Sequence record: SRR31156797_1064
Strand: one strand, 5' to 3'
Length of the DNA: 64,000 bases
This document shows positions 1-51,278 of the stretch, piece after piece (position 1 is the stretch's first letter; each line of letters begins with the position of its first letter). The notes beneath the pieces were generated by a model, which saw only the letters and a list, made by a program, of their open reading frames with translations, did no database searches and had not been told where the DNA came from. The translations under genes and the position numbers were made by a program.

Positions 1-1179
1 GCCGCTGATATTGCATTCAACACAGGCCATAAGGTGATTGCCCCGGGTCTCGCCGATAATTTCGTACCGTTCGAGACGTTTCAGCTGTTGGATAAAATAA
101 GGGCCTATATCCTGCACATGCTCACAAATCTCATCTCTTTGCATTATCTCAATATTCTTGAGCGCTGCAGCGCAGGAAACCGGGTGGCCCGAGTAGGTGT
201 ATCCGTTGGTGAAATAGGCAGTTTCCGGTGCGTTGTGGCCCGAGATACGATCATACAAGCGGTCGGAGATAATCACCGCACCCATGGGCTGATAGCCGCT
301 GGTTATCCCCTTGGCCGTTGTGATAATATCGGGAACAATCCCCCATTCAGGTTCTGCGGAGAAGAACTGCCCAAGCCTGCCGAAACCGGTGACAACCTCA
401 TCGAGGATGTAGAGAATTTCATATTTCTCACACACCTTTTTCATTGCCTTGTGATAGCCTGGGGGGGGGACCAGAACACCGCCTGAACCCATGATCGGCT
501 CAGCAATGAAACAGGCAACGTTGTCAGGACCGATTTTCAGAATCTTTTTCTCAAACTCATCGACCAGTTGATCGCAGTACTCACTAAGAGATTGCCGCTC
601 GTCACGGCGGTATGGGTTCGGCCCGGTCACGTGATGGACGATATCAGAGATATAATGAAAGTATGTCCTGTCAACTGCTTTACCGGACAGAGAGGCAGTC
701 AGGTAAGAACCGCCGTGGTAGCTTTCAGTTCTCGAGATAATATGTTTTTTCTCGGGCCTGCCAAGGGCGCTGAAATAAAAATGGACAAAACGGATTGCAG
801 AGTCAACCGCACAGGAGCCGCTGGTGGTGAAGTGGACGCGGTTCAAATCTCCTGGAGCTAGCCCTGCCAACACTTCTCCCAGTTCGGCAGAGAGATTATT
901 GGTCATCGCGCCAAACGGCGTATAGTAAACAAGCTCTTCAACCTGTTTGGTTATAGCTTCCGCCATTTCCTGGTTGCCGTATCCGATATTGACACACCAC
1001 ATACCGGCAATGCCGTCGAGATACCTTTTCCCGTCACTATCATACACATGGTACCCTTCACCTCTCTTGATTACATGATCTCCCTTTGTGGAGGCAGTAG
1101 CAAGGTCGGCCCATGGGTGGATAGTATGCCGCTTGTCTTTGGTACTTAATTCTTCGGTTATCCCACTTTCGGCTTCCAT
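1..1179 (-). CDS. PLP-dependent class III (omega) aminotransferase, 3' end outside the window; candidate DMSP-amine aminotransferase
   Basis: Absent from the ORF track because it has no stop in the window. Manual translation from ATG at 1179 (RBS GAGAAAGGA) gives MEAESGITEELSTKDKRHTIHPWADL...YLDGIAGMWCVNIGYG...ESYHGG...FIAEPIMGSGGV...DEVVTGFGRLG...DIITTAKGITSGYQPMGA...GYTYSGHP, all class III aminotransferase motifs. The frame is open to position 1. Confidence 0.92.
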   Translation of the reverse strand, partial: MEAESGITEELSTKDKRHTIHPWADLATASTKGDHVIKRGEGYHVYDSDGKRYLDGIAGMWCVNIGYGNQEMAEAITKQVEELVYYTPFGAMTNNLSAELGEVLAGLAPGDLNRVHFTTSGSCAVDSAIRFVHFYFSALGRPEKKHIISRTESYHGGSYLTASLSGKAVDRTYFHYISDIVHHVTGPNPYRRDERQSLSEYCDQLVDEFEKKILKIGPDNVACFIAEPIMGSGGVLVPPPGYHKAMKKVCEKYEILYILDEVVTGFGRLGQFFSAEPEWGIVPDIITTAKGITSGYQPMGAVIISDRLYDRISGHNAPETAYFTNGYTYSGHPVSCAAALKNIEIMQRDEICEHVQDIGPYFIQQLKRLERYEIIGETRGNHLMACVECNISG

Positions 1180-1193
1180 ATGTCCTTTCTCAA

Positions 1194-1709
1194 TCAGCAT
1201 GCTACCATCACAATTTCACTTGATTCACGGTCATGCTGCTCAAGCTGCTTTTCAATGTAGGCAATCCCTTCCGGACTCACCTCTTCTTTACGGCCGGTAA
1301 TCCAAAAACGGCAGTTTGGGGTTCCACACAAACAGGGAAACTGTCTGAACAGTATATCTTCAGTCTGTGAATAGTCCATGGTCAGCGCCTGTCCGGCATT
1401 GATATCACGTAATGCCCACAGCTCAAACTCGGTCATATCAAGGTGGATATTCGGCGCACAGGAGTGCAGAAGGTACCCGGTGAAATGCGGATCGTACATA
1501 TGTGTTGTGGGGGTTACCTGCAAGGTATGCTGGAGTACAGTCGGCACAATGTTTCCCGTAATCCTGGCAACCATTTCTCCGCGCTTGATGTCTTTTTTGG
1601 TGTAGACACCGGCACCTTTTCCGTCGTCACGTCGGCATACTGTAAAATCTTCTTTTTTCGGGTAACCGCAATTCGGGTCCAAACCATATTCTTCAGGGTA
1701 TATCAGCAT
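1194..1709 (-). CDS. Stand-alone SET/post-SET domain methyltransferase (BurB-like; candidate methionine S-methyltransferase)
   Basis: SET motifs GAGVYT, YLLHSCAPN and ALRDINAGQALTMDY plus post-SET Zn motif CLCGTPNCR. Start placed at ATG 1709 behind a strong RBS (AAAGGAGG). The substrate call is inferred from gene context. Confidence 0.85.
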   Translation of the reverse strand: MLIYPEEYGLDPNCGYPKKEDFTVCRRDDGKGAGVYTKKDIKRGEMVARITGNIVPTVLQHTLQVTPTTHMYDPHFTGYLLHSCAPNIHLDMTEFELWALRDINAGQALTMDYSQTEDILFRQFPCLCGTPNCRFWITGRKEEVSPEGIAYIEKQLEQHDRESSEIVMVAC

Positions 1710-1767
1710 TGTGATCCTCCTTTGTTGTGCATCTATTGAATTCAATCTGTCGCTCTTTTGCTGTTGC

Positions 1768-2991
1768 TTAGCCCAGCAAAAGATATTCTGAAAATTCTCC
1801 TCGCATACAGTGATTGGAACTCATGGAAGAGGTGTATGCTCCGGCGTTAATGAACGCCAACAGATCCCCTTCCTCCATTGGTGGTGCCATAAAATCTTCG
1901 ATGAGTACATCGAGTGCTTCGTTTATATTTCCGGCAACGGTTACCGGGGAAAGGTTAGCGGCCGCGAAATACTCCTTTTTTGAGTTGGGCAGCATGCATG
2001 GAACCGGTTCACATGGCAGTTTGTAGTGGACCGGTTCCATCGTAAGATTAAAGCCACCGTTCACGCCCACAAAACGCTTCCCAGCCTTTGTTTCTACACT
2101 ATTGGCCTCCAGCACCAGTACGCCAGCATCTTTGACAATGTAGGTTCCCGGCTCAACGTTGATTTCATACGATGTATCTCCAAAAACCCGCTTTATGACC
2201 GAAGCCCATTCTGAGAGGTCCAGATGCTTGTCCTCCGTTGTAAGCGGTACACCGAGTCCTCCGCCGAGGTTAATTGCCTCTACGGTCGGGATTCTTTCAA
2301 TCATTTTCAGACATTCCCGGAGAATTTTCTCCCACGCTGGAAGTTGATCGCTGAGATACCCGCAGCCTGTATGAAAATGCACTCTGTCGATACGCAGATC
2401 GTATTGCTGTGCGAGTTGGATAGCCTGCTCAAGTTCAGAAATATATATCCCAAATTTGGTGGGTTTCTCCCCGCTGTAACGCAGCAGCTCGTTAGAAGCG
2501 TATCCTGTGCCCATGGCAGGGTTGATGCGGATACCGATAGACCTGCCGGGAGTACGCTCGCCGATACGTCTGATCATGCTGCAACCATCGGCGTTGAGTT
2601 TTAGATCGGGAAAATTTGTAAGAAAATCAAGATCAGCATTGGATACTGAGGTTGCGGTGTAGGATATGTCTGAGGAATAAAATCCACAGCTCATTGCATG
2701 CCGCACTTCAGCCGGCGAGCAGACATCCACGCCGCATGTGGTTGATGACTTGATCCATGTGAGCAGCGGCCTAAACCGGTTAGCCTTCAGCGCATAGTAA
2801 ACTCTGCTCGGCAGCCCTGTACTTTCAAGAGCCCGCTGTACCCGCGCTATATTTTCGAGAATTCTATCAGCACTATATAAAAAAAGCGGTGTTCCGAGCT
2901 GCTCACCCATTTTTTGTACCTCTTTGCCTGCAAAGGTGACCTGGTTTTTCTCATTATAGGCTAACCCCTTTCTCTCCCACCATAATTCCAT
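1768..2991 (-). CDS. PLP fold-III decarboxylase of the LysA/ODC family (candidate S-methylmethionine decarboxylase)
   Basis: YALKAN (PLP lysine), HFHTG, NLGGGLG, EPGTY, GAYTSSMSSN. The usual GPxCESxD loop of LysA reads GNINEALD. Confidence 0.85.
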   Translation of the reverse strand: MELWWERKGLAYNEKNQVTFAGKEVQKMGEQLGTPLFLYSADRILENIARVQRALESTGLPSRVYYALKANRFRPLLTWIKSSTTCGVDVCSPAEVRHAMSCGFYSSDISYTATSVSNADLDFLTNFPDLKLNADGCSMIRRIGERTPGRSIGIRINPAMGTGYASNELLRYSGEKPTKFGIYISELEQAIQLAQQYDLRIDRVHFHTGCGYLSDQLPAWEKILRECLKMIERIPTVEAINLGGGLGVPLTTEDKHLDLSEWASVIKRVFGDTSYEINVEPGTYIVKDAGVLVLEANSVETKAGKRFVGVNGGFNLTMEPVHYKLPCEPVPCMLPNSKKEYFAAANLSPVTVAGNINEALDVLIEDFMAPPMEEGDLLAFINAGAYTSSMSSNHCMRGEFSEYLLLG

Positions 2992-3040
2992 GGATACATC
3001 ACTCCGAAAATATTGTAGTTTTATCGTTGGAACTGTGGTG

Positions 3041-4246
3041 CTACGCGACCGCCATTGCAGAAATGTCGAGCGCTTCTTGCAGCTGAGACACCTTGTTGGT
3101 TTGCTCCCAAGGAAAGATATCTCTGCCGAAGTGACCGGCCACTGCGGTCTGCCTGTAGCTCCAGCCGCGAGGTTTGGTCAGTTCCAGGTCACGGGCGATG
3201 GATGCCGGACGGAAGTCAAAAATTTCTCCAGCTTCAAGAACTTCCTGTATCCTCGACTCCTCAACCGTACCTGTACCAAAGGTATCGATATTGATGCTGA
3301 GAGGCTTGGCAACACCAATCGCATAGGCAACCTGGATTTCACACTTCTCTGCAAGCCCTGCCGCAACAACATTTTTAGCAGCATATCGTGCATAGTAGGC
3401 AGCAGAGCGGTCAACTTTGGATGGATCTTTTCCTGAGAATGCGCCACCACCGTGGCAGCCGACACCGCCATAGGTATCGACGATTATTTTTCTCCCTGTC
3501 AACCCAGCATCACCGTGAGGACCGCCAATGACAAATTTACCGGTCGGGTTAATAAAAAACTGGGTATCTTCAGTGAGAAGACTTGTTGGGGTGAGTACCG
3601 TTTTGGCAACATCAATCAAGTCCTTGCGGATTATCTCAAGGTCGATATCGTCAGTCTGGTGAGAGATAACAATGGAGGTAATTCTTGTTGGTGTACCGTC
3701 AACATGTTCTACGGAAACCTGGGTTTTTGCATCCGGGCGAAGATATGCTATGTCGCCCTTCTTCCTGACATTCTGCAGAGCTTCCAGGAGCAGGTGGCTG
3801 TAATAAATCGGTGCAGGCATAAGAGACGGGGTAGAGCTTGTAGCATAACCAAACATCATGCCCTGATCTCCGGCACCCTGCTCAGTAAAGAGCCCTGCAC
3901 CTTCCAGTACCCCTTGAGCAATATCTGCTGACTGCGGATGGATATGACAAAGATATTTGAATGTGTCGCAGGAGAATAGAAGCTCAGCACGGTCATAGCC
4001 GATGTCCTTTACAACGTCCCTTGCGATTTTCTCCGGATCGATATTTGCCCAGCCATTACAGGTTATTTCACCCAGGTTGGCGACAAAGTCTGTGGTGACT
4101 GCGGTCTCACAAGCCACCTTGCTTTTGCTGTCCTGTTCAAGACAGGCATCAAGAATAGCGTCTGAGATCTGATCACAAACCTTATCGGGATGTCCTTCAC
4201 TCACTGACTCTGACGTAAAAACGTGATTACTCTGCAGTTTACTCAT
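3041..4246 (-). CDS. metK: S-adenosylmethionine synthetase
   Basis: FTSESVSEGHPDK, GAGDQG, GGGAFSGKDPSKVDRS signatures. Confidence 0.98.
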   Translation of the reverse strand: MSKLQSNHVFTSESVSEGHPDKVCDQISDAILDACLEQDSKSKVACETAVTTDFVANLGEITCNGWANIDPEKIARDVVKDIGYDRAELLFSCDTFKYLCHIHPQSADIAQGVLEGAGLFTEQGAGDQGMMFGYATSSTPSLMPAPIYYSHLLLEALQNVRKKGDIAYLRPDAKTQVSVEHVDGTPTRITSIVISHQTDDIDLEIIRKDLIDVAKTVLTPTSLLTEDTQFFINPTGKFVIGGPHGDAGLTGRKIIVDTYGGVGCHGGGAFSGKDPSKVDRSAAYYARYAAKNVVAAGLAEKCEIQVAYAIGVAKPLSINIDTFGTGTVEESRIQEVLEAGEIFDFRPASIARDLELTKPRGWSYRQTAVAGHFGRDIFPWEQTNKVSQLQEALDISAMAVA

Positions 4247-4284
4247 AATGTTCCTTTCTGTATTTCGTTTGCGTACTCTTGATA

Positions 4285-5778
4285 TTAATAGCGATAATGA
4301 TCCGGCTTGTATGGTCCATCAACGGATACACCGATATAATCGGCCTGGTCTGGAGTCATTCTGGTTAGGGTCGCACCGAGTTTATCCAGATGCAGCTGTG
4401 CCACTTCCTCGTCGAGCTTCTTATCGAGGACGTGGACACCGATTTCTTTACTTTCCCTGTTAAGCCAGAGATCAATTTGTGCGAGCACCTGGTTGGTAAA
4501 GCTGTTTGACATAACAAAGCTTGGATGACCTGTTGCACACCCAAGGTTCACTAGTCGGCCTTCTGCCAGCAGATAGATGGAATGCCCATCTTCGAAGGTG
4601 TATTTATCTACCTGCGGTTTGATGGTTGTCCGTTTTACACCCGGCCAGTTGTCGAGTGCATCAACCTGAATTTCGTTATCGAAGTGGCCGATGTTACAGA
4701 CGATTGCCTGGTCCTTCATCTTGCTCATATGCTCTGCGGTGATAATGTCTTTGTTACCGGTTGTGGTTACATAAATATCAGCAGTCGGCAATGCCTGTTC
4801 AACGGTGCATACCGTGTAACCTGCCATACATCCCTGCAGGGCACAGATGGGATCCACCTCTGAGACAAGGATTCTGCATTTCTGTCCGGCAAGAGACTCG
4901 GCCGAGCCTTTACCAACATCGCCAAAACCACAAATCATTGCAGTTTTACCGGCAAGCATCACGTCCATGGCGCGACACAGACCGTCAACGAGGGAGTGGC
5001 GGCAGCCAAATACATTATCAAACTTGGATTTGGTGACGGAATCGTTCACATTAATTGCCGGAACAAGCAGGGAACCTTCTTTCTGCATCTGATACAATCT
5101 ATGCACCCCTGTGGTGGTTTCCTCTGAAACACCCTGCCAGCTCTTGGCGGCGCGCTGCCAGAATTCAGGATCTCCGGCATGAACACCGCTCAGAAGTGCC
5201 ATTACAATATTGAGTTCCCGGTTGCCGGTATCTTCTTTCAGCAGCTCAGGATTCTTTTCAACATCTACACCCTTGTGAATCAACAGCGTTGCATCCCCGC
5301 CGTCATCAACGATCAGCTGCGGAGTCTTGCCATCAGGCCAGGTCATGGCTCTAAACGTACACCACCAGTACTCTTCGAGTGTTTCGCCTTTCCAGGCAAA
5401 AACAGGAATTCCTTCTGCCGCAATCGCTGCCGCTGCGTGGTCCTGTGTTGAGAAGATGTTACAGCTTGCCCAGCGTACATCGGCACCCAGGGCAACCAGT
5501 GTCTCGATGAGGACTGCGGTCTGAATAGTCATATGGAGACTACCCATAATTCTTACGCCCTGAAGAGGCTTCAGTTGTCCATATTTTTCCCGTGTCGCCA
5601 TCAGGCCGGGCATTTCCTGCTCTGCTATTTCAATTTCCCGTCGACCCCATTCGGCGAGACCAAGATCTGCAACCTTGTAGTCAGAAGCATTGTCACCAAG
5701 AGCTTCAGCCATAATGGCTTGAAAGCCGTTGCTACTTGTATTTACTGATGCGGCTGGTTCATCTCCATCAAAAGACAT
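4285..5778 (-). CDS. ahcY: S-adenosyl-L-homocysteine hydrolase
   Basis: [49 protein letters not shown] and C-terminal KPDHYRY. RBS GAGGAA before ATG 5778. Confidence 0.98.
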
Positions 5779-5909
5779 TTTTGTTCCTCTTTGTAAATTT
5801 ACAGTATCCCACTAACGGGCGAGTCTTGCTGTGAACAGACCTTTGCAGCTCTAGTGTAGCTTCAGGCGCAATCAGCGGGTTCCACCTATCAGCGCTTCTT
5901 TGTTGGTAT

Positions 5910-6890
5910 CTATTTAAAACTGGCAGAGGTACGCAACTCCTGCCACTGATTCTCAGGAAGAGTTGTCCCTTCACAGGCTACAACGGCACCACCAAGCAAT
6001 GCTCCAATACTGCCGCTTTTTTGCAAGGATTTACCGGAAAGCAGACCATAGAGAAATCCTGCGGCCCAGAAGTCCCCGGCACCGGTCGTGTCAATAACCT
6101 GCTCAACAATGGTTGCAGGTACATGACAACACTCCCCTGCATGGCAGAGCAAGGCTCCTTTTTCTCCAACCTTCACGGCAGCCGTCTCGCAAAGCTCAGC
6201 CAGGGACTCAAGTCCTGTTTGCGGATTACTGCTGCCTGCAAATGCTTCAGCCTCTTCCTCATTGGCAAAAACGATGTCGACATATTCTGCCAGGAGATCG
6301 TGAAGAACGGGCCGACTTGCGTGAACGACCTCAAAAGAGGCCAAGTCAACACTGACAGTGCAACCAGCATCCTTAGCGGCCCCTAGTGTTGCCTGCATAA
6401 GATCGGGATTGAAGAGTACATAGCCCTCGATATGCGCATGACCGCAACCAATGAAGTCTTCCTTGGCTACATGTTCCGGTGCAAATGTCATAGCAGCACC
6501 AAGATGGGTACGCATGGTTCGCTCGGCATCCGGTGTAACCAGGCTCAGGCACTGTGCCGTTGGCAGGTTGGGCATAACGCGGATCGCTGTGTCATCGCCT
6601 CCAGCTTTCAGCAGTTGATCTCGGAAGAAATTCCCAGCGTGATCATTACCAAGAGCGCCTAAGAAACGACTGGGCATCCCTAAACGGGCCAGGGCAAAAC
6701 TCGTATTACCTGCGCTGCCACCCGGAGTGTAATCAGGCTGGGTGGGTAGTTTTTCTGAAATATTTGCTAAAGTGGCTGAATCGACGAGCTCCATGCCGCC
6801 TTTTTCTCCACCTACTTTTTCTAGAAAACCCTCTTGCACCTGGATAACCTGGTCAACTACAGGTGATCCAACACATATGACGGGTTTCAT
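5910..6890 (-). CDS. PfkB/ribokinase-family kinase, adenosine-kinase-like
   Basis: GGSAGNT, ERTMRTHLGAA, FANEEEA, DTTGAGD. Start moved to ATG 6890 (MKPVICVG), which lies downstream of the sigma54 promoter. Confidence 0.85.
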   Translation of the reverse strand: MKPVICVGSPVVDQVIQVQEGFLEKVGGEKGGMELVDSATLANISEKLPTQPDYTPGGSAGNTSFALARLGMPSRFLGALGNDHAGNFFRDQLLKAGGDDTAIRVMPNLPTAQCLSLVTPDAERTMRTHLGAAMTFAPEHVAKEDFIGCGHAHIEGYVLFNPDLMQATLGAAKDAGCTVSVDLASFEVVHASRPVLHDLLAEYVDIVFANEEEAEAFAGSSNPQTGLESLAELCETAAVKVGEKGALLCHAGECCHVPATIVEQVIDTTGAGDFWAAGFLYGLLSGKSLQKSGSIGALLGGAVVACEGTTLPENQWQELRTSASFK

Positions 6891-7085
6891 GGCACTATTC
6901 TCTCTCATGTTTTTTCCAAATAAAGCATTGCCACTGTTCATTCGACTGTAGCGCAGCTTGACGTTGCACATAACTTGGTCTGTATGCTTGCGATTGTATT
7001 GAAATGAGCTGCTAAGAGTTGTTCCGAGAGTCCTGCTATGGACATCTGTTGAAATAACTGCTGATTTGTTTTGCAAATGCTACAG

Positions 7086-7102
7086 AGCAATAAGCATTCC
7101 AG
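7086..7102 (-). promoter_or_regulatory. Sigma54 (-24/-12) promoter of the pfkB-ahcY-metK-decarboxylase-SET-aminotransferase operon
   Basis: Minus strand reads CTGGAATGCTTATTGCT: exact GG-N10-GC spacing with the TTGC box, beside a divergent sigma54 activator gene. Confidence 0.75.
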
Positions 7103-7233
7103 CCCTGTATCAGCATGCTTTCCCGGTAACCCCAAATCGGCGGATAGCTTTGCGTGGTAAGGGCATGCAGCCAAACAGATTTTCTATAACATTTAGAAAT
7201 TACTGGTAGATGCAAACAAGGAAAGGCGGATAG

Positions 7234-7291
7234 TGAGAAATATGTGCCGCCTTTTTACCATAGCCTGAATGATGTGGGCATATTTTTCCCA
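7234..7291. promoter_or_regulatory. Two candidate enhancer (UAS) sites for the sigma54 activator
   Basis: TGAGAAATATGTGCCGC (7234-7250) and TGGGCATATTTTTCCCA (7275-7291; reverse complement TGGGAAAAATATGCCCA), 41 bp apart and about 130-190 bp upstream of the -24 element. Confidence 0.5.
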
Positions 7292-7451
7292 TGTAGATAG
7301 TGTTGGGAAAATTGATGGACCCAGTGAGTAGTAATCAGTCAGATAATGAAAAAAGTAAAAAAATACCTAAAATTGAGGTTTAAGGGGAGCGTGTTGTATC
7401 GTCAGAATTATTATCTTCTGTTTTTCCTTGTAAAATGGAGGAAAGATGATA

Positions 7452-7468
7452 TGTAAAATATGTGCTCA
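7452..7468. promoter_or_regulatory. Third copy of the 17-bp motif, candidate autoregulatory site
   Basis: TGTAAAATATGTGCTCA, about 70 bp upstream of the activator start codon. Confidence 0.4.
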
Positions 7469-7539
7469 ATGCAAGATGAGAGGTCTCAAATTTTACCCCT
7501 TATTGAATCCATTCCCCTTTATACAACAACAGCTCTTCT

Positions 7540-8916
7540 ATGGAAAACGACCCCCAAAAAATAAAAATTATTTGTGTTGATGAAGGGAGAGGTCTTGCGC
7601 AGCAGGTCAGGAAACTTTATTCAGAACCCCGACTGCATCTTGCGTACGAAAAAACCATTGAAGAAGTGGTTGATCGATTTGAGCACGAATCTTTTGATAT
7701 TATGCTTTTTTCAAGTTCTGTAACCCACCAGCATCCGTCATCGGCGCTTGAGATTCTTGAGATAATTACAGCCAAATGCCCGGAAACACAGATCCTGTTT
7801 TTTGCCCATCCCAGGCGCCTTAAAATCGCTAATCAGGCTCTTCGTGCTGGTGCATTCCACTACTCACTGTTGCCAGTAAGTGATGAGGAGCTGAAGCTGC
7901 TTATTGAAACAGCGGTGGAGAGAAAACCCCAGCTAGGCTTGAACCTGCTGCTTCGCTCCGAGGTTGAAAAAACAACTTTTGAACAAATGGTTGGTCGTTC
8001 AACTGCAATGCGGCAGGTCTATCGTCAGATACGACAGGCAGCGGTAACGGACATCCCGGTTCTTATCTCAGGTGAGACTGGAACGGGCAAAGAACTGGCC
8101 GCACAGGCAATTCATGAGCTGAGCGATCGCTCAAATGAACCATGTATACCTGTACATATCGGTAGTCTGCCATCTGATCTGGTTGCCAGTGAACTGTTCG
8201 GTCATGAGGCTGGTGCGTTTACCGGCGCAAATGAACTGCGCAAGGGGTGTTTTGAGCTGGCTGCTGGAGGCACCATATTTCTTGATGAGATCGCTACCAT
8301 TGACCAGAAAATGCAGGTGAGTCTATTGAGGCTGCTCGAGACAAAATCGTTCCACCGTCTCGGCAGTCAGAACGATATCGATGTGGATGTGCGGGTCATC
8401 GCTGCCTCTAATGCTGATCTCATGAATGAAATTCGCAGGGGCAACTTTCGTGAAGACCTCTACTACCGGCTGGATGTACTTCACATTATCATGCCCCCCC
8501 TGAGGGAACGCCATGGGGATCTGCACCTGCTTGTGGACCATTTTATCAAGCAGTCGTGTGAAGAGTTTCAAAAGGCGATTCGCGGTATCAGCCCCATTTT
8601 TTTTAACTGTATAGATTCCTATAAATGGCCAGGCAATGTGCGCGAGCTTAAAAATGTTTTGCAGCGGGCTGTCATCAACTGCCAGGAGGATGTTCTCGAT
8701 GTTGTCCATCTCCCTGAACGCTTAATGAACAGTCAACATGATGATATTGCCATACCCATTCGCGTCGGGATGAGTCTTGCTGAAGTGGAAAAAGAAGTTA
8801 TTGTTAGAACCCTGGAATACACCAGGTATAACCGCACCAGCGCAGCAGAGATATTAGGTATCTCCCGCCGCGCTCTGTACAATAAGATTCAGAAGCTTAA
8901 CTTGGGCGCTTTCTGA
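7540..8916 (+). CDS. Sigma54-dependent enhancer-binding protein (NtrC family) with a degenerate receiver domain
   Basis: GETGTGKE, ELFGHEAGAFTGA, FLDEI, FREDLYYRL, WPGNVRELKN and a C-terminal Fis HTH (NRTSAAEILGISRRALYNKI). Confidence 0.95.
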   Translation: MENDPQKIKIICVDEGRGLAQQVRKLYSEPRLHLAYEKTIEEVVDRFEHESFDIMLFSSSVTHQHPSSALEILEIITAKCPETQILFFAHPRRLKIANQALRAGAFHYSLLPVSDEELKLLIETAVERKPQLGLNLLLRSEVEKTTFEQMVGRSTAMRQVYRQIRQAAVTDIPVLISGETGTGKELAAQAIHELSDRSNEPCIPVHIGSLPSDLVASELFGHEAGAFTGANELRKGCFELAAGGTIFLDEIATIDQKMQVSLLRLLETKSFHRLGSQNDIDVDVRVIAASNADLMNEIRRGNFREDLYYRLDVLHIIMPPLRERHGDLHLLVDHFIKQSCEEFQKAIRGISPIFFNCIDSYKWPGNVRELKNVLQRAVINCQEDVLDVVHLPERLMNSQHDDIAIPIRVGMSLAEVEKEVIVRTLEYTRYNRTSAAEILGISRRALYNKIQKLNLGAF

Positions 8917-9354
8917 TTATTAAATTTTTACGCCGCCCACGAACATGGTCACAGATTATGTCTCAGGGTAATGAACATCACATTTATAGTACGGAAAGGC
9001 CGAGGATTCTTTGGTTACTTCCGACTGAATAAGGCCGGTGGGTACTTCTGTGGGATGATGCCAGTAAATTGCCAATTCAATCAAGTCGGGCTATTGTGCT
9101 GAAACAGGCAGTAGGTTAGCATTTCCGACCTGCCAGTCTTATCCTGGACAGGAAGTGTCTAAGTTTCCGGATTTGCATAAATAGTTAACATTGCCAGTAA
9201 TAACTTTTTCAATTGCTTTGGAGGCGTTTCCCGTCTCTAACACGAAGAATTCCAACGGCTATTCTCCGAGAAAAACTTTCTATTTTCATTGCAGCTTGCG
9301 TTGTAAAACTAGGGTGTGTCGTATCAGGTGATCACCTGGTGTAAGTGAAAGTTA

Positions 9355-9390
9355 TTGACAGAACTGCCGGGCGGGGTAGACTGGTCTGTA
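9355..9390 (+). promoter_or_regulatory. Candidate sigma70 promoter and TetR operator
   Basis: TTGACA (9355-9360), 16-bp spacer, TAGACT (9377-9382), overlapped by the near-palindrome TAGACTGGTCTG. Confidence 0.45.
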
Positions 9391-9419
9391 TAGTTAAGTG
9401 TTTAAGGAGGGTTTCTGTT

Positions 9420-10628: not shown

Positions 10629-13190
10629 TTACTCAACAATCTTTGATAATGAATAAAGAATGTCACTCAGTCCAATCTTACCATCCCGATTAGCATCGGC
10701 AATTATTGATACATTTTCAGTGGTACTATCGGCCATAACTTGCAAACCGATGATGATATCCTTCAAGTCTATAGATCCATCACCATTTATATCCCCGGCC
10801 AGGTTCACAGTTTCAATGTTGAGATAGTTGATCATGGTATATTCATCCCATATACCAATATCAACAGTCAGTTTGGAATCGCTTACACTGACTTGCTTTT
10901 GACGAATAATATAAAAATCTGCCTCCTCATCATCGATAAATGTTACTCCTTCTATCATTATCCGATTGTGAGAGCGCTTTGTTCTTGGTGTTCCTACAGA
11001 CACTTCCACATTATAAGTACCGTTTGGTAAATCAAATTCAAAAATGCTCGGGTGATGGGCATAATCATCATACGCATAAGTGATTTTTCGTTCATCTGTT
11101 TCACTTCCCCATGGATCGCGCCCGGTTAAAAAATGAGTTGTGTCATCGAGCCACCCAAAACCGGCAGTTTCGTCATACTCTTCAGAGCCCACTTGTAAAT
11201 AATTATGGCCTGCATAAGTAACATATTTGTATCTAACCCCATTATCATATGTCTCTTCTATGTATGTCGTACTAGGTGAGCCTTCCGGATCCTGGAAATT
11301 TATATAATAGTTTCCTGGAAGGGTGTTTGCTCTGGGGTGGGCAATTGGAGGAGTAATATCTGGAATAGAAGCAATCTCTCCCCCGACATACAACCCGATT
11401 AATCGTCTTAAATTATAAAGAAATGTGCTGTCTCGGGTATAGCTCGCAACCCCTTTAATAATTTTGTCTATTTGTGTGTCAACTGCACTGGTGACATTTA
11501 CCTGGGGGGCCGAATTATTGTTCATTACAAAAAAATACTCAAAATCTTCCAGACTATCCCTCATGAGTTCAAATCGGATGGATGTCACAAAGCGGTGATT
11601 GTTAGAACCATAGCTAATAGGGGTGTTGCTTTTTGATGGAGGGTAAAGCATAAACAAATCACCATTATGATTGCCGTTGAGCGGATTTGTCCATGGGTTT
11701 TGGCTCCAGTTGTTCAGGGAATAATAGGCGATTCCTCGAACGCGATATTTCCATAAAAACCAGCCTGTTAATTTGCTTTCAATGCCTGGGTGGTCTAAAG
11801 TTATGGGATTGAAATATGGCGGCCGCGTACCGTGTAGCCAGTATATCCAGGTAGTCTCATTATTGTTGACTTCACGGGGGTGTGATTCTGCTGGGTCAAA
11901 ATTGTTTAACACCGGCATCCAGATGTCAATTTTGGCCCCGGTATGGGTGCTGTGATCGTATATTTCTGGTTTCGGCTCTTCGGAAACCATTAATTTTATT
12001 TGCGGGGCAACTTTTTTCAATTCCTGGGAATACCATGCTATTGCATCATAATCAGCTTGGTTTTGTGGCTCATTTGCAACATAGTGGTAAGCTTTATCCA
12101 AATACCCGGTAGCACTCAAATAGTCTTGAAGAGTAGCCATGTATGAAAACCATTTCTGGTTATACTGCGTATTGGGATTGTTTTCTGTATACCAGTCACT
12201 TGTGGTTTCGGTTATTCCGCAAAATGAGTCGGGACGCTGGTCTGTGGATGGATCATTTGTCTGGAATGTGGCGGCCATAAATGAAGGGAAGCCAGTGCCT
12301 TCGTTAAAGGACTCTGAAAATTTTCCTTGCATCAAGCCGGTTCCTGCTAAATATCTTTCGGCCGGATTTTCAAACCCCCAGATACCGTCGGTATCGGTTA
12401 ATGTGCCGTTGCAATCATAGTCAATATAAGGTCCTGCTCCGCTTGAGGTAATCCCACCTGACCATAAAGCACTTTTGGGTGTTAGGTGATGATCAATAAA
12501 AAAGGTCTTAATTTTGTCAACATACGTCCAGTATTCAGCACCACAGCACGTCGCTCCGTAATGAGCTAGAATTGTGTTATGTGAAACATTCATTTGGGAT
12601 TTGACATGGACTTCGTCGGGGATTGCAAAGTTGAAAACGTGCAGGGTTACCGGGATTGAAATGTCTCCTATTTGAACATGAGTGGTATAATCACCTGATG
12701 GTGTAGTTTTAGGTACATAGGCACTAAACCAGAAGGCAGTATTCTCTCCGGAAACAATATTGACAGATGCACCTTTTTCTATTGGCCATAAAGGGTCTGG
12801 GTAGTCACCTGTACGACCTAAGATATCTGTGGCCTGTGTTATGTTTACATATTTAACCTGATATATTTCAGTCTCAATCCCTGAGGCGAAATCTCCAACG
12901 TTTACATTCACGTTCCCGGAAATATTCGATTTTACAATGACCTGAAAAGGTTCAAATTCATTTTTAGCGGCATAAACCAATACCTGCGAACTGGTGTCAG
13001 TGGGTACCTCATCGTTTTTGAAAACACGCTCTGAAGGTAGTGTCGTCCAAAACATATAATTTTCAGTAGATTGTAAGAGCTTATAGGTATAATTTTCCAC
13101 ATCTATTGCTAAAGACGATGGAGCAGAGAGCAAGTTGGTTACCATAATGAATGGCAATAAAAGAAACCTCACTTGATAGTTTAGATACAT
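10629..13190 (-). CDS. Secreted glycoside-hydrolase-like protein (GH123/DUF4091-like) with a CBM-like domain and a C-terminal dockerin-like repeat
   Basis: Signal-like N-terminus, AAKNEFEPFQV, YPDPL, YHYVANEP, NGDLFMLYP..SIRFELMRDSLEDFEY, beta-sandwich FEFDLPNGTYNVEV, and a duplicated Ca loop GDINGDGSIDLKD...ADANRDGKIGLSD. Confidence 0.75.
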   Translation of the reverse strand: MYLNYQVRFLLLPFIMVTNLLSAPSSLAIDVENYTYKLLQSTENYMFWTTLPSERVFKNDEVPTDTSSQVLVYAAKNEFEPFQVIVKSNISGNVNVNVGDFASGIETEIYQVKYVNITQATDILGRTGDYPDPLWPIEKGASVNIVSGENTAFWFSAYVPKTTPSGDYTTHVQIGDISIPVTLHVFNFAIPDEVHVKSQMNVSHNTILAHYGATCCGAEYWTYVDKIKTFFIDHHLTPKSALWSGGITSSGAGPYIDYDCNGTLTDTDGIWGFENPAERYLAGTGLMQGKFSESFNEGTGFPSFMAATFQTNDPSTDQRPDSFCGITETTSDWYTENNPNTQYNQKWFSYMATLQDYLSATGYLDKAYHYVANEPQNQADYDAIAWYSQELKKVAPQIKLMVSEEPKPEIYDHSTHTGAKIDIWMPVLNNFDPAESHPREVNNNETTWIYWLHGTRPPYFNPITLDHPGIESKLTGWFLWKYRVRGIAYYSLNNWSQNPWTNPLNGNHNGDLFMLYPPSKSNTPISYGSNNHRFVTSIRFELMRDSLEDFEYFFVMNNNSAPQVNVTSAVDTQIDKIIKGVASYTRDSTFLYNLRRLIGLYVGGEIASIPDITPPIAHPRANTLPGNYYINFQDPEGSPSTTYIEETYDNGVRYKYVTYAGHNYLQVGSEEYDETAGFGWLDDTTHFLTGRDPWGSETDERKITYAYDDYAHHPSIFEFDLPNGTYNVEVSVGTPRTKRSHNRIMIEGVTFIDDEEADFYIIRQKQVSVSDSKLTVDIGIWDEYTMINYLNIETVNLAGDINGDGSIDLKDIIIGLQVMADSTTENVSIIADANRDGKIGLSDILYSLSKIVE

Positions 13191-13442
13191 AAAACATCCT
13201 TATCTCCGGATCATTTTCATTTATATTGATCCGCTGGTTGTAGATTGGTTTAGGTCGGAAAAGTAGGAGATGAAAATTCCCTCAATTGACATAAGTATAC
13301 GTGGTTAAGTTCCCAATTCAAACCTTGCCATCAATTATACTGCAATTTCATAATGAAGGTTATCTATGCCAATTTTAGCTTGATTGCCCTGGTTGGTATT
13401 TAGATTTAATGGCTTGATGCTGGCTTACTGTTAGTGCCATAT

Positions 13443-13471
13443 TTGACAATAGTCTTATTGTGGAATATTGT
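13443..13471 (+). promoter_or_regulatory. Sigma70 promoter with palindromic operator for the toxin-antitoxin operon
   Basis: TTGACA-17 bp-TATTGT. Palindrome ACAATA-GTCT-TATTGT (13446-13461) overlaps the -35 box and spacer. Confidence 0.6.
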
Positions 13472-13503
13472 AAGTATGGAATTAGACTAGGTGAGGGTTT
13501 GAT

Positions 13504-13905
13504 ATGGCACTACCACTGTTAGAAGAGCAAGAGTTAAGTATTCCTCAAGTCATCAAGGTAATAGAAGAGGGACTACCTGTTTCAGCGTTCACGCAAATTC
13601 GTGATGATTTGGAGTTGACCGATAAAGAATTGTCTCGAATCATCCGAGTTCCCAAAAGTACGTTGGCAACTCGGAAGAAAAAGGGCAGGTTTTCTTTTGA
13701 AGAATCAGAGAGACTCTACCGGGTCCAGCGTCTCCTTATTAAAGCTGTTGATGTATTTGGGGCTATAGAGCCAGCTCGTAAATGGCTGATAGAAAAAGCC
13801 TACGGGTTAGGAGATATTTCTCCGCTTGAGTTTGCCAAGACAGAGATTGGAGCAAGAGAGGTCGAAAATCTTTTAGGTCGCATTGAGTACGGAGTATTCT
13901 CCTGA
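13504..13905 (+). CDS. Type II antitoxin, Xre/MbcA/ParS family
   Basis: IEEGLP, HTH, RFSFEESERLYR, VFG..ARKWL...LG..SPLEFAKTEIGAREVENLLGRIEYGVFS. Stop overlaps the toxin start (TGATG). Confidence 0.92.
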   Translation: MALPLLEEQELSIPQVIKVIEEGLPVSAFTQIRDDLELTDKELSRIIRVPKSTLATRKKKGRFSFEESERLYRVQRLLIKAVDVFGAIEPARKWLIEKAYGLGDISPLEFAKTEIGAREVENLLGRIEYGVFS

Positions 13906-14363
13906 TGGAGATTGTCTCATATCGTCTTGTCAAAGAAAAACACGCTCAAACAGCTTTTGACGGTGAAGGAGCCAGGCTTTTTGGTGGTCGGTGGAACAGC
14001 CGAGGAGTTCCTCTTATTTACACTTCAGAATCATTGGCATTATGTTGTCTTGAAATCTTTGTTCACTTGCCGTCGTATGATTTGTTATACGAGTATGTGT
14101 ACATACAGGCCTCATTCGGTGATGAGCTGGTAGAAGATGCTCAACTATTTGATGGTTGGGACGCGAGACCTGTCTCAAAAATATCCCAAGCCATTGGAGA
14201 TCAATGGGCAAAGAAAAAACAAAGTCCTATTTTACGTGTACCAAGCATTATCGTCCCTGATAGTCATAATTATATTATTAATAACAATCATCCAGACGCA
14301 CGAAAAATCCAAACAATAGATCCACGTCCATTCAGCTTTGATCCAAGATTAAAGAAAGAGTAG
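13905..14363 (+). CDS. RES-domain toxin (NAD+ phosphorylase/ParT-like)
   Basis: AFDGEGARLFGGRWNSRG, YTSESLALCCLE, LRVPSIIVP..NYIIN..HPD, FDPRL. Confidence 0.92.
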   Translation: MEIVSYRLVKEKHAQTAFDGEGARLFGGRWNSRGVPLIYTSESLALCCLEIFVHLPSYDLLYEYVYIQASFGDELVEDAQLFDGWDARPVSKISQAIGDQWAKKKQSPILRVPSIIVPDSHNYIINNNHPDARKIQTIDPRPFSFDPRLKKE

Positions 14364-14501
14364 GGCTCAAGCAGACAGCATTTGATCTCCTACAAAAAAG
14401 GAATTTTACAAAGTGCCGGGATATTTTTTCCTCGTTCACGTAAGGTCAGTAAATGACTGATAACTTAACTATAATAATAACCACCTAGAAAGGATTACCA
14501 C

Positions 14502-14780
14502 ATGAACAAAACCGATCTCATAACCAAGGTAGCAGAGTTAGCTGATCTCAATCAAAAAGAAGCAGGGGCAGCTTTGCAGGCTTTTATGGATGCTGTTACA
14601 AAAACTTTAGAAGAAGGTGATAAGCTGAGTTTGATAGGATTCGGTACATTCTCAGTAGCAGAACGATCTGCGCGTACTTGCCGGAATCCTCAAACAGGAA
14701 AAGAAATGCAACTTCAAGCTAAAAAAGTAGCCAAGTTTAAAGTTGGTAGCAAATTGGCTGCTGCTGTTAATGGAGAGTAG
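14502..14780 (+). CDS. hup: HU-family DNA-binding protein
   Basis: MNKTDLI, LIGFGTFSVAERSARTCRNPQTG, KFKVGSKL. Confidence 0.95.
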   Translation: MNKTDLITKVAELADLNQKEAGAALQAFMDAVTKTLEEGDKLSLIGFGTFSVAERSARTCRNPQTGKEMQLQAKKVAKFKVGSKLAAAVNGE

Positions 14781-14918
14781 GCATATAATCGGTGAGTTAC
14801 CTACCTTAAACAGCGAAGAGCTAAAAAAACTTATTTTACATTGTTCAGGACAACTCAAGGAGTAAGCCACATGTTTTTAGCCAAAGATATTGAAAATATG
14901 ACATGTTCTCGATAAGAA

Positions 14919-15887
14919 ATGTATATTTCACGAGATAATTTGGGGCTTAACTTCACTACAAGAATCTGCGGCATTCTGTTTTTTTCGATATTCTTCAGCT
15001 TTCAACTCATTATTATTGCTAACCCTGCCAGGGCAATAGAGTTGCTGGTTGATACTATCAAGTCACAACCAGGCAGAACTGTTTCCGTAAGTGTGAATGT
15101 TGCAAAGTATGACCAGGAACAAATTGCAGCTGCCGTTTTCACACTTACCTATAACAGGAGGTATCTTTCTTTAGTAAATGTGGATTCTCCATTTTTTCAT
15201 AGTTTTACCAATCAATGGAATTTATTAAGTCCTGTTCCCGATCCATTACCAGGAACCAGTGTTGTTGTTGACGGTCAGACATACTCCAAACCTTTAGTTC
15301 ATAATACAATCAGTTCGGAGTTCCTCAATAAAACGATGGTTGCAGGTGTCAGGGTGAAATCTGGTAAACCATCTGCTCTTTTTACTTTTACCTTTGCTAT
15401 TGACAGTACTGCACCAGTCGCAATTTATCCGATCTCCATACAGCCGACCATTCTCAATAATACTAATGCAGGCTATTCTGTTAGTGGTGAAACAGTTCCT
15501 ATTCTCACTGACTATGTTGAGAGGGAAAGTGATCCTTTATTGGCATACCCATCCTACTCACCCTCAATAATTAACGGAATGATTATCATCGAAGAGCCTT
15601 TTCTGGATAGTGATAATGATGGAATTGAAGACAATTGGGAACTTGATAATTTTTGGGGGTATGATCTTGCAGATAGTACTAGTGATTTCGATAAAGACAA
15701 TTATACCGATTTACAGGAGTATTTAAATTTTATTGGAAATGAAACCGATACCGATGGAGTTGGTTATGACCCAAAAGTTGTCAATGCTCCTGGAGGTACT
15801 GGATATAATCCTCCAAGCAGTAGTTCTTCTTTTTGGGGTTTGCTTCTTCCTGGTATTATTTTCAATGCAAACGAACAAGCAAATTAG
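14919..15887 (+). CDS. Exported cohesin-domain protein with Ca-binding DxDxDG repeats and a hydrophobic C-terminal tail
   Basis: Signal peptide ending ARA; cohesin-like PGRTVSVSVNV...IAAAVFTLTYN..YLSLVNV...LFTFTFAI..AP..IYPISI; DSDNDGIEDNWE and DFDKDNYTDLQEY; tail SSSSSFWGLLLPGI. Confidence 0.6.
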   Translation: MYISRDNLGLNFTTRICGILFFSIFFSFQLIIIANPARAIELLVDTIKSQPGRTVSVSVNVAKYDQEQIAAAVFTLTYNRRYLSLVNVDSPFFHSFTNQWNLLSPVPDPLPGTSVVVDGQTYSKPLVHNTISSEFLNKTMVAGVRVKSGKPSALFTFTFAIDSTAPVAIYPISIQPTILNNTNAGYSVSGETVPILTDYVERESDPLLAYPSYSPSIINGMIIIEEPFLDSDNDGIEDNWELDNFWGYDLADSTSDFDKDNYTDLQEYLNFIGNETDTDGVGYDPKVVNAPGGTGYNPPSSSSSFWGLLLPGIIFNANEQAN

Positions 15888-49512: not shown

Positions 49513-49811
49513 GGAGTAATTGGCTGGTAAAGGTTACAAGGGCTAGATCACTTGAACAATAACTAATGACTAGTAAAACTTTATACTACCCTAACCTGAA
49601 CCTGTGGGCAAGAATGAGGTGCCACTATGTCGGTAATCAGTAAAGTATATTTGTTTATAGAGTGTTGTGGCGGGCACAGAACTTAGGAGTGTGTGCTTTT
49701 TTGTGAAAGAAGAGGACGCTACTTTTCTGTCTTGTCGTCTTATATATGGTATTGTACGGTGGAAATAATCTACACTGGAGCAGGGCTACCCCAATGGTAA
49801 GAGGTGATTGC

Positions 49812-51278
49812 ATGGATAATGGCATGATGCAGAAAACATCTTTTCAAGACGAACTGGACCGCCTGCAGGAAACTATACAGACATGTGAGGCGTTTCCTGC
49901 TGACCAGGTTATTGCCGGTAAGGGGTATGATGTCAATCCGTCTCTTGAGTTACTGGAGCTGCAAGGGACCGGTATGGCAGATATTGCATTAGGTCGTGCG
50001 AGTGAGCCAGAACCGGGCAAGGAGATGGTGCTGGTGTGGAAGCATCCAAAATCCCTTGCTGTCCACTGCAGGCCGGCTTTACCAAATGACCTGCTGGCAC
50101 TCAAACTTGTCCATGAAACAATCGATTTGACGCAAGCTGCCAACGAAAGTGGTGTCACCGTTGGTGCTGTTGAGGATGTTCTTTTTCAGGCAGTGAAAGA
50201 TGGGCTTGTCCTGAGAGCCCCTTCATTGCTTTGTCGCGATCAGGGTACCTTCCCCACCGAGTTTGATGATCAGGAATATCGGTCAACACCGGTTTTTACC
50301 CTTCAGTGGCATGTCACCCAGGCCTGTGATCTGCACTGCAAGCACTGTTATGACAGGAGCGACCGGGTAACGCTCCCCCTTGATAAGGGGTTGCGCGTGC
50401 TTGATGATATGCACCGTTTTTGTCACCAGAATAATGTGCTGGGGCAGATTACCTTTACCGGTGGTAATCCTTTGATGTATCCACGATTCAAAGACCTCTA
50501 TAGGGCTGCAGCAGATAGGGGATTTATGTTGGCTATTTTGGGAAATCCGACTTCGGCATCCATCATGGATGAAATTGTTGCTGTTCAGCAGCCTGAATTC
50601 TATCAGGTAAGCCTGGAAGGGTTGGCGGAGCATAATGATGCTATCCGTGGAGAGGGCCATTATCAGCGGGTTATGGATTTTTTAAAGATCCTGCAGCAAA
50701 AACAGATCTATTCAATGGTTATGTTGACCCTGACCCAGGCTAACTACCAGCAGGTTATCCCCCTTGCCGAGCAGTTACGGGATAAGGCTGATCTGTTTGT
50801 ATTTAACAGGTTGACTCTCTTTGGCGAAGGAGCAGCCCTCAAGCCGGTTGAAGATGCAGTTTTCGAGGATTTTCTTAAACGTTACCAGGAAGCAGCTAAA
50901 GAAAATCCGATTATGGCGTTTAAAGATAACCTGTTCAACCGTATTAATCATTGCGCAGATAATCCCCTCTTTGGCGGTTGCGCAGGCTTTGGCTGCGGTG
51001 CAGCCTTCAATTTTGTTTCACTGCTTCCAGATGGAGAGGTCCACGCTTGTCGTAAACTGCCCTCTTATATGGGAAATATCTTTGAGCAATCTTTGCAGGA
51101 GATCTATCAGTCGGAAAAGGCAAAAAAGTACCGTGTCGGCAGTGCTGCCTGCGCTGACTGCAGTATTAAGATTGCCTGCCGGGGGTGCCTGGCAGTAGTG
51201 GCCGGCCATGGCCTTGACCCCTTTGTTGACCGTGACCCTTATTGTCCTGGAATTGTATCGCAGGATCAGGACAATTGA
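49812..51278 (+). CDS. sbtM: Radical SAM/SPASM RiPP maturase, SbtM ('selenobiotic', thio/seleno-oxazole) family
   Basis: Long N-terminal extension, FTLQWHVTQACDLHCKHCYDRS, TGGNP, SPASM GGCAGFGCGAAFNF...ACRK...CADC...CRGCLA...DPYC. Family assignment is from recalled motifs. Confidence 0.78.
   Translation: MDNGMMQKTSFQDELDRLQETIQTCEAFPADQVIAGKGYDVNPSLELLELQGTGMADIALGRASEPEPGKEMVLVWKHPKSLAVHCRPALPNDLLALKLVHETIDLTQAANESGVTVGAVEDVLFQAVKDGLVLRAPSLLCRDQGTFPTEFDDQEYRSTPVFTLQWHVTQACDLHCKHCYDRSDRVTLPLDKGLRVLDDMHRFCHQNNVLGQITFTGGNPLMYPRFKDLYRAAADRGFMLAILGNPTSASIMDEIVAVQQPEFYQVSLEGLAEHNDAIRGEGHYQRVMDFLKILQQKQIYSMVMLTLTQANYQQVIPLAEQLRDKADLFVFNRLTLFGEGAALKPVEDAVFEDFLKRYQEAAKENPIMAFKDNLFNRINHCADNPLFGGCAGFGCGAAFNFVSLLPDGEVHACRKLPSYMGNIFEQSLQEIYQSEKAKKYRVGSAACADCSIKIACRGCLAVVAGHGLDPFVDRDPYCPGIVSQDQDN

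Follow-up and report, generated by a model that had tools for sequence, protein, structure and literature searches.

Dimethylsulfoniopropionate (DMSP) is a climate-relevant sulfur compound, which is high in sediments and salt marshes, where its producers are only partly known; the marker genes of the field are dsyB, mmtN and dsyGD. Here we describe a group of six genes at one end of a 64,000-nucleotide stretch of DNA from the sequence record SRR31156797_1064 (the whole stretch is hereafter called the window), which probably encodes a route to DMSP through the methylation of methionine (Met), with a set of enzymes of the BurB type standing outside a polyketide cluster. Such enzymes are known from the bur (malleicyprol) cluster of Burkholderia thailandensis, a cluster whose BurB, BurI, BurD and BurE match the enzymes proposed here both in family and in the order of their reactions. 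BurB, a protein of 172 aa, methylates Met to S-methylmethionine (SMM), with Km values of 16.6 mM (Met) and 1.8 mM (S-adenosylmethionine, SAM), and rejects 4-methylthio-2-hydroxybutyrate (MTHB) and methylmercaptopropionate (MMPA) (PMC12542666). In B. thailandensis SMM accumulates in the burI mutant, and strains mutated in burD or burE continue to form the final product, for which the authors propose housekeeping enzymes (PMC7496086).

The same route, from Met to SMM, DMSP-amine, DMSP-aldehyde and finally DMSP, is that of the MmtN pathway in Novosphingobium sp. BW1 and Streptomyces mobaraensis (MmtN/MSMT, SMMDC, DMSPAAT and DMSPADH), but its first enzyme is a class I methyltransferase, whereas here it would be a SET-domain protein of unrelated fold; therefore, surveys probing with mmtN or dsyB would miss a locus of the BurB type. 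The mmtN clusters that have no nonribosomal peptide synthetase (NRPS) gene belong to DMSP accumulators (PMC9135737) and, like them, the genes of the window stand alone. The SMM route of Spartina (MMT, SDC and DOX) likewise consists of a methylation followed by a decarboxylation by a fold-type III enzyme dependent on pyridoxal 5'-phosphate (PLP) (PMC11464771). The Spartina decarboxylase derives from ornithine decarboxylase and the amine is oxidised by an O2-requiring copper amine oxidase, in place of which the locus of the window has an aminotransferase, which suits an anaerobe. In contrast to the bur cluster, the locus has no polyketide synthase (PKS) or NRPS genes, no TauD-type dioxygenase and no FkbH genes, shows the order decarboxylase-SET-aminotransferase, and joins this module to extra metK and ahcY genes and to that of a probable adenosine kinase, with homocysteine-synthesis genes added in relatives; a putative sigma-54 promoter and an anaerobic sulfate-reducing host are further differences, and the likely role here would be the accumulation of DMSP and not the supply of a toxin precursor.

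The six genes were all found between positions 1 and 7102, on the minus strand and in the same direction, as the original prediction had claimed, in the order PfkB, ahcY, metK, decarboxylase, SET and aminotransferase. Together with the regulatory elements, they are as follows:

5910..6890, minus strand: PfkB-family kinase; the longest open reading frame (ORF) is 5910-7076, and the likely start, ATG at 6890, gives 326 aa
4285..5778, minus strand: ahcY (adenosylhomocysteinase), second, cluster-linked copy; TIGR00936 591 bits, cut-off 498
3041..4246, minus strand: metK (methionine adenosyltransferase), second, cluster-linked copy; TIGR01034 507 bits, cut-off 309
1768..2991, minus strand: fold-type III PLP decarboxylase, LysA paralog; Pfam Orn_Arg_deC_N and Orn_DAP_Arg_deC
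1194..1709, minus strand: stand-alone SET protein, BurB-like, 171 aa (ORF 1194-1745); Pfam SET 5.7e-09
1..1200, minus strand: class III (omega) aminotransferase, BurD-like; Pfam Aminotran_3 2.4e-78, NF005447 626 bits, cut-off 618
7101-7086, minus strand: sigma-54 type -24/-12 promoter element TGG-N8-TTGC, TGGAATGCTTATTGCT, ~195 nt upstream of the PfkB start codon
7540..8916, plus strand, divergent: sigma-54 enhancer-binding protein; Pfam Sigma54_activat 6.4e-65, HTH_8 1.6e-15

In the proposed mechanism, the SET protein would transfer the methyl group of SAM to the sulfur of Met, giving SMM, and the LysA-like PLP decarboxylase, whose changed distal pocket fits a cationic sulfonium, would convert SMM to DMSP-amine; the class III aminotransferase would then produce DMSP-aldehyde, and an aminobutyraldehyde-type dehydrogenase, whose gene lies just past the window edge in relatives, would oxidise it to DMSP. 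The extra MetK and AhcY with the adenosine kinase would regenerate SAM and clear S-adenosylhomocysteine, homocysteine-synthesis genes being present in relatives, to run at high flux, and the sigma-54 promoter with its own activator would switch the operon on. The computation itself establishes homology, gene linkage, paralogy and the residue changes; each chemical step, as well as the physiological role as a compatible solute or stress protectant, is a proposal built on these. We consider it very likely that the SET protein and the decarboxylase make SMM and DMSP-amine, and likely that DMSP is the product of the operon; its use as a compatible solute is put forward only as a tentative suggestion, to which we would lend at most limited confidence.

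The SET protein and the decarboxylase beside it

The SET protein consists of a single SET domain, and its start, set by alignment with 14 homologs in which it is conserved, gives the length of 171 aa that had been predicted for a stand-alone protein. Among all solved structures its best match is BurB of B. thailandensis (9l4t; E 2.2e-51, 177 bits, residues 15-160), with about 54% identity (79/146 positions, counted on the printed alignment), and the second best is the histone methyltransferase KMT2D (4z4p; 1.3e-08, 38 bits), which agrees with the earlier claim of a SET-domain methionine methyltransferase, the protein being a close homolog of BurB and not of the lysine methyltransferases. The contacts of BurB with SAM are made by R42, A44, H72, H93, R133 and H138, and Met is held through main-chain atoms (PMC12542666). 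A44, H72, H93 and R133, and also Y124, are identical in the protein of the window, R42 is replaced by Lys and H138 by Leu; main-chain contacts to Met are unreadable from sequence. The protein is a predicted Met S-methyltransferase of the BurB type.

A SET domain usually marks a lysine N-methyltransferase, which is also the name that NCBI gives to these proteins. It could be asked whether the SET protein N-methylates free lysine or ornithine, giving a product that the decarboxylase, the aminotransferase and the dehydrogenase would turn into a trimethylammonium betaine, e.g., delta-valerobetaine or gamma-butyrobetaine, as the dehydrogenase family acts on amino- and betaine-aldehydes and the acidic distal pocket of the decarboxylase, described below, fits an ammonium as well as a sulfonium group. 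We regard this as quite improbable: the score of 177 bits to BurB has to be compared with at most 38 bits to lysine methyltransferases, and BurB, which was crystallised with Met and with SMM, methylated only Met among the three substrates tested (PMC12542666). Moreover, SMM accumulates in the burI mutant (PMC7496086), and the homocysteine S-methyltransferase-like gene found beside SET in 3/7 loci of the pair type (see below) fits SMM and not a lysine derivative.

The neighbourhood of the SET gene was compared in 48 loci, the best of a scan of genome contigs by a peptide pattern that mismatches BurB at its first position, so that Burkholderia was missed. ORF picking was unreliable in four high-GC loci (L015, L022, L044 and L046; several ORFs there had no family match, one of them overlapping a clear decarboxylase match), and the neighbourhoods there were set aside. 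The SET gene adjoins the decarboxylase gene in 43/48 loci (the exceptions are L042 and L044-L047) and in 7/7 further loci of the source's family, compared with 0/32 control loci carrying more distant SET proteins (27-39% identity). The two enzymes also occur as fusion proteins, namely P0142 (553 aa, SET then decarboxylase), P0215 (573 aa) and P0216 (572 aa); in P0142, named from Novosphingobium mangrovi, the SET part is 48% and the decarboxylase part 49% identical to the proteins of the window. In three Pseudomonas spp. loci (L044, L046 and L047) a BurB-like SET protein (42-45% identity) was observed with no decarboxylase, aminotransferase or dehydrogenase gene within 10 kb.

The decarboxylase has the fold of LysA (TIGR01048), and its PLP lysine, its glycine loop and the further PLP contacts that were checked are also those of LysA. 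Its score with the LysA model TIGR01048, 214 bits, is below the cut-off of 297.9, and in 5/5 relatives' genomes tested a separate LysA was found, with 293-537 bits compared with 203-241 for the SET-linked gene. The SET-linked decarboxylases are at least 50% identical to each other and 24-25% identical to the relatives' LysA and to E. coli LysA. The bacterial SMM decarboxylases SMMDC and BurI are closest to diaminopimelate decarboxylase with only 24-27% identity (PMC11464771), which is the same relation that the decarboxylase of the window has to LysA.

The residues of 43 family members (the window and 42 loci; L048 was omitted, as its gene is in two pieces) were aligned with those of 7 LysA proteins. 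The PLP lysine, H191, the glycine loop, E268, Y311, E343 and Y378 are kept in the SET-linked enzymes, but E. coli LysA R271, R307 and C342 correspond to T283, E319 and N357 in the decarboxylase of the window. Throughout the family R271 is replaced by Asp (33) or Thr (10), R307 by Glu (43/43) and C342 by Asn (43/43), compared with Arg, Arg and Cys in 7/7 LysA proteins. In the diaminopimelate decarboxylase of Thermotoga two arginines are salt-bridged to diaminopimelate's distal carboxylate (PMC8277567). From the conserved motifs, we infer that these arginines correspond to E. coli R271 and R307. The replacement of this pair by acidic or polar residues would fit a side chain with a positive charge, for instance a sulfonium.

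For comparison with the bur cluster we used the SET homolog found by a protein search of plasmids in Eleftheria terrae, the teixobactin producer, which lies in a PKS/NRPS cluster (NZ_CP106953.1, record 186452-214160, L100/L101) on a 737-kb replicon. The annotation of this cluster includes a type I PKS, SET, a TauD-type dioxygenase, an aminotransferase, a gamma-aminobutyraldehyde dehydrogenase and a very large thioester-reductase protein, together with an NAD(P)-binding protein, an FkbH-domain protein, a 'diaminopimelate decarboxylase' and an AMP-binding protein; by its gene content and order, compared with burA to burJ, we take it to be bur-like. This uncharacterised cluster and a protein of Burkholderia ubonensis stand in for BurI, BurD and BurE of B. 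thailandensis in our comparisons. All four enzymes, taken from the window or from Desulfopila sp. IMCC35008 (L001), the nearest complete genome, are about 47-55% identical to the Eleftheria set, with 52.6% for SET. The decarboxylase of the window is 46.5% identical to that of Eleftheria (E 7e-131), which shows the same Asp/Glu/Asn signature, and 45% to that of B. ubonensis (P0099, 407 residues). A search with the Eleftheria decarboxylase scored 8000 candidates, of which 1653 reached E <= 1e-40, those bearing names coming from Burkholderia, Paraburkholderia, Pseudomonas, Novosphingobium and Desulfoluna; the Novosphingobium proteins, from the genus of the MmtN pathway, are placed here by name only.

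In a tree built by a quick search from 48 family members, 7 LysA proteins and a single outlier (56 rows in all), with long LysA branches, all the SET-linked decarboxylases fall with the Eleftheria protein on one side of a branch with a support of 100 SH-aLRT. This clade, together with the loss of the LysA arginines, agrees with the prediction that the decarboxylase groups with the bur-type enzymes, apart from LysA, and we assign it to the BurI/SMM-decarboxylase clade, with a predicted activity on SMM.

The assignment as LysA was rejected, given the score below the TIGR01048 cut-off, the identity of 24-25%, the lost substrate arginines and the separate LysA in relatives. Automatic annotation calls the homologs 'diaminopimelate decarboxylase' and 'protein-lysine N-methyltransferase', as would be expected if LysA, a protein-lysine SET enzyme and the cell's only metK and ahcY had come together in a housekeeping cluster by chance. 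This explanation is hardly credible and was discarded, since it is contradicted by the same LysA score and residues, by the separate LysA of relatives, by the linkage of 43/48 against 0/32, by the fusion proteins, and by the second copies of metK and ahcY in relatives that are described below.

Proposed later steps, SAM cycle and control of the operon

Of the four genes needed for the pathway, those of the methyltransferase, the decarboxylase and the aminotransferase are in the window, and the fourth was seen beyond the edge in relatives only. The aminotransferase gene leaves the window, with 400 of ~472 codons visible, and its product is 90-94% identical to those encoded after SET in Desulfopila sp. 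IMCC35008 and in Desulforhopalus vacuolatus (L002). The Desulfopila enzyme shares 55% identity with its counterpart in the Eleftheria cluster, but this value is not specific for the bur type, because 76 metagenome relatives with 44-59% identity lack SET and decarboxylase genes nearby; the relatives that lie inside a SET cluster, 4/80, all have at least 75% identity.

In Desulfopila sp. IMCC35008 the complete order is: divergent activator, PfkB, ahcY, metK, decarboxylase, SET, aminotransferase, aldehyde dehydrogenase, HcyBio and NIL-ferredoxin. The dehydrogenase matches the PRK13473 aminobutyraldehyde dehydrogenase model (748 bits, cut-off 615), has E. coli YdcW as its best solved relative and is 54.6% identical to the enzyme of the Eleftheria cluster. 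The gene order of the window was found in 14 loci, 11 of which have a readable flank past the aminotransferase, and in 10 of these a dehydrogenase gene follows (L001, L003, L005-L009, L048, L112 and L113). The aldehyde dehydrogenase gene that the original prediction placed to the left of position 1 is thus seen in these relatives, and one of the two nearest, Desulforhopalus vacuolatus, lacks it. Two of these loci show peculiarities of their own: in Desulforhopalus vacuolatus a class I methyltransferase gene precedes metK, and genes of a methylenetetrahydrofolate reductase and a LuxR regulator replace the aldehyde dehydrogenase (L002 6220-6861 and 12206-13126); in L048 (7474-11718), a metagenome-assembled genome, metK, decarboxylase and aminotransferase each match in two pieces, as a result of frameshifts or assembly errors.

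The genes upstream of the decarboxylase point to a dedicated supply of SAM. Three relatives, Desulfopila sp. IMCC35008 among them, have a separate metK of 603-617 bits, compared with 507-509 for their cluster copy (499-509 among relatives in general), and in the genomes G001 and G519 a separate ahcY, with 647-659 bits compared with 588-600; the window metK (507 bits) and ahcY (591 bits) score like the copies of the cluster type. In Desulfoluna limicola, a genome with the SET-decarboxylase pair only, metK and ahcY are single copies. The PfkB protein, whose start at 6890 was chosen by comparison with the 330-aa ORF of Desulfopila sp. IMCC35008, matches Pfam PfkB with 3.9e-48, its best solved relatives are the adenosine kinases 3ubo (3.8e-46) and 4e3a, and none of the NCBIfam sugar-kinase models reaches its cut-off; it is probably an adenosine kinase, which would clear the adenosine produced by AhcY. 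The extra MetK, AhcY and adenosine kinase would make sense for an enzyme of the BurB type, with a millimolar Km, that has to run at high flux, and this private SAM cycle argues for a product made in bulk rather than in traces.

No PKS or NRPS gene was found in the 64-kb window, as predicted, or in 20 kb of the Desulfopila locus. Elsewhere in the window (47053-51278), an 819-aa AMP-binding/carrier/acyltransferase protein (Aas-like, minus strand) adjoins a radical SAM-SPASM protein, with no PKS/NRPS assembly line. That DMSP is made here only as a building block of a secondary metabolite similar to malleicyprol, with the assembly-line genes elsewhere in the genome, seems to us very improbable, even more so than a betaine product. 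The sole characterised BurB does work in this way (PMC7496086), and in Eleftheria PKS and NRPS genes surround the same four enzymes; however, not only are such genes absent from both regions searched, but the neighbouring SAM-cycle and homocysteine-synthesis genes point to a bulk flux, and the NRPS-free MmtN clusters are those of DMSP accumulators (PMC9135737).

The gaps between the genes of the operon are 38-131 nt, the aminotransferase and SET genes overlap, and no terminator-like sites were found in the intergenic gaps of the minus strand; we infer that the six genes are on a single transcript. Scans of the window for sigma-70 promoters and terminators gave matches at chance level, and no riboswitch was found in 1-9400 (no Rfam match at E <= 1). 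Upstream of PfkB, the element TGGAATGCTTATTGCT shows the GG and GC of a -24/-12 promoter, canonically spaced. Taken by itself, the sigma-54 pattern does not exceed chance in the window, with 14 matches compared with 10.7 expected, 24 of 100 shuffles reaching 14; nevertheless, this element counts because it is conserved in 5/5 aligned relatives (L001, L003, L004, L007 and L048), as the one conserved block in an otherwise divergent region. It faces the gene of the enhancer-binding protein, which has a weak receiver domain, an AAA+ domain and a Fis-type helix-turn-helix, occupies the same position in Desulfopila sp. IMCC35008, and is presumed to be the activator of the operon. The promoter motif and the enhancer-binding gene support the sigma-54 promoter proposed ahead of the genes and suggest that the operon is sigma-54 dependent.

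Further along, the window holds other features. The GC content falls to 0.38-0.42 around 10629-15887, compared with ~0.49 in the operon, in a region with an 853-aa GH123-like glycoside hydrolase and a cohesin-domain protein close by (10629-15887), and with a toxin-antitoxin pair (13504-14363), in which the gene of an Xre-like antitoxin (13504-13905) precedes that of a RES-domain toxin (13905-14363). At 54691-58388 there is a second group for methionine/cysteine biosynthesis, comprising a MetX-like alpha/beta hydrolase, MetW, a hexapeptide transferase and a CysK-like PALP enzyme.

Hosts, end product and significance

By its proteins, the source of the window is a member of the Desulfocapsaceae, because they are 87-95% identical to their counterparts in Desulfopila sp. 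IMCC35008 and Desulforhopalus vacuolatus, and this placement supports the sulfate-reducing host that had been claimed. The SET gene, searched at E <= 1e-25, is rare in an even sample of the source's phylum, with 3/401 genomes, including the query's own relative, and common in the source's family, with 46/187 genomes. The family carriers have the type of the window in 7 cases (78-89% identity) and a second type in about 40 (47-53%), with two genomes having both. Among the 43 loci with the pair, 28 belong to the Thermodesulfobacteriota (Desulfobacteraceae 11, Desulfocapsaceae 6, Desulfosarcinaceae 4, and others), and the remaining ones to Chromatiaceae (Thiorhodococcus), Azospirillaceae, Rhodospirillaceae, Myxococcota, Planctomycetota and unclassified Pseudomonadota. 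In Thiorhodococcus drewsii and T. minor (L008 and L009) the order decarboxylase-SET-aminotransferase-dehydrogenase was found, with proteins 70-84% identical to those of the window and of Desulfopila sp. IMCC35008, and the Thiorhodococcus decarboxylase nests in the Desulfobulbia clade of the tree, which suggests a lateral transfer between Desulfobulbia and Thiorhodococcus, neighbours in the sulfur cycle.

The second type of SET gene forms a bare SET-decarboxylase pair in the seven cases examined (L092-L098, from G519, G479, G504, G530, G525, G497 and G481), and in 3/7 of these loci a stand-alone homocysteine S-methyltransferase-like gene, scoring below its family cut-off, is located just upstream of SET, an arrangement reminiscent of an SMM cycle, which is a hint for SMM and not a rule. 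Beside the pair, the 48 loci carry an aminotransferase gene in 24, a dehydrogenase gene in 16, metK in 17, and HcyBio with NIL-ferredoxin in 7, all of which are lower bounds owing to contig ends.

Several observations weigh against a complete route to DMSP. H138 of BurB, the contact of the SAM adenine, is Leu in the SET protein of the window; the comparison of the decarboxylase, the aminotransferase and the dehydrogenase relies on stand-ins for the B. thailandensis enzymes BurI, BurD and BurE; and the aminotransferase family is generic, as 76/80 metagenome relatives (44-59% identity) have no SET or decarboxylase nearby. The window ends within the aminotransferase gene, so that the dehydrogenase is known from relatives only, and in Desulforhopalus vacuolatus, the relative nearest in decarboxylase sequence, the methylenetetrahydrofolate reductase and LuxR regulator genes stand where the dehydrogenase is found elsewhere, the best aldehyde dehydrogenase anywhere in that genome being only 43% identical. 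Moreover, in 24/48 loci no aminotransferase, and in 32/48 no dehydrogenase, is beside the pair, although contig ends truncate some of these loci, and six pair-only genomes have no orthologs at the level of BurD and BurE (best identities of 33-38% and 34-47%, or none), so the conserved core reaches only DMSP-amine. Finally, several holders of the pair are non-marine (soil Azospirillaceae, Rhodocista), which weakens a purely osmotic role.

Some of these facts would be expected if the SET protein and the decarboxylase worked as proposed, but the end product were DMSP-amine or another sulfonium, with the aminotransferase serving turnover or another branch. The universal core is limited to these two genes (43/48 and 7/7 loci), the six pair-only genomes have no close ortholog of the aminotransferase or the dehydrogenase, and no dehydrogenase gene is present in Desulforhopalus vacuolatus or visible in the window. 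For the operon of the window, however, we consider this unlikely, because its aminotransferase gene is there, overlapping SET, and a dehydrogenase gene follows the aminotransferase in 10/11 readable relatives; in addition, the missing of dedicated genes does not stop the pathway, as the burD and burE mutants are still productive (PMC7496086). The pair-only form may end at DMSP-amine or rely on housekeeping enzymes. To our knowledge, DMSP-amine, the sulfonium analog of a diamine, has not been reported from bacteria as an independent metabolite.

BurB is said to be restricted to Burkholderia that are closely related (PMC10989797, 2022) and to be 'reported exclusively in B. thailandensis', with minor environmental weight (PMC13360808, 2026). 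The literature places burB in a narrow range of taxa, and a published survey of the Tara Oceans data from the water column, with a threshold of e < 1e-40, found no close burB homolog. Our search of the full-text literature for burB gave only reviews and papers on Burkholderia BurB, a result that does not prove absence from print, and no report of BurB or of DMSP synthesis in Desulfobacterota or sulfate reducers was found, in agreement with the original prediction, most subscription papers and supplements being outside its scope. What appears to be new here is a predicted chemistry of the BurB/BurI/BurD/BurE type without a polyketide context, with a private SAM cycle and sigma-54 control, in anaerobes.

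We therefore put forward, as a plausible but still tentative proposal, that purple sulfur bacteria and the anaerobic sulfate reducers of the Desulfocapsaceae, Desulfobacteraceae, Desulfosarcinaceae and other groups could be a BurB-dependent source of DMSP that has gone unrecognised in the anoxic sediments of seas and salt marshes, with a two-gene form, in about 40/187 genomes of the family, that would end at DMSP-amine. If this is true, the strict anaerobes of sediments would join the DMSP producers, using a route that would be independent of oxygen because an aminotransferase replaces the amine oxidase of plants, and the SET gene with that of its decarboxylase would provide a new pair of marker genes for sediment metagenomes.

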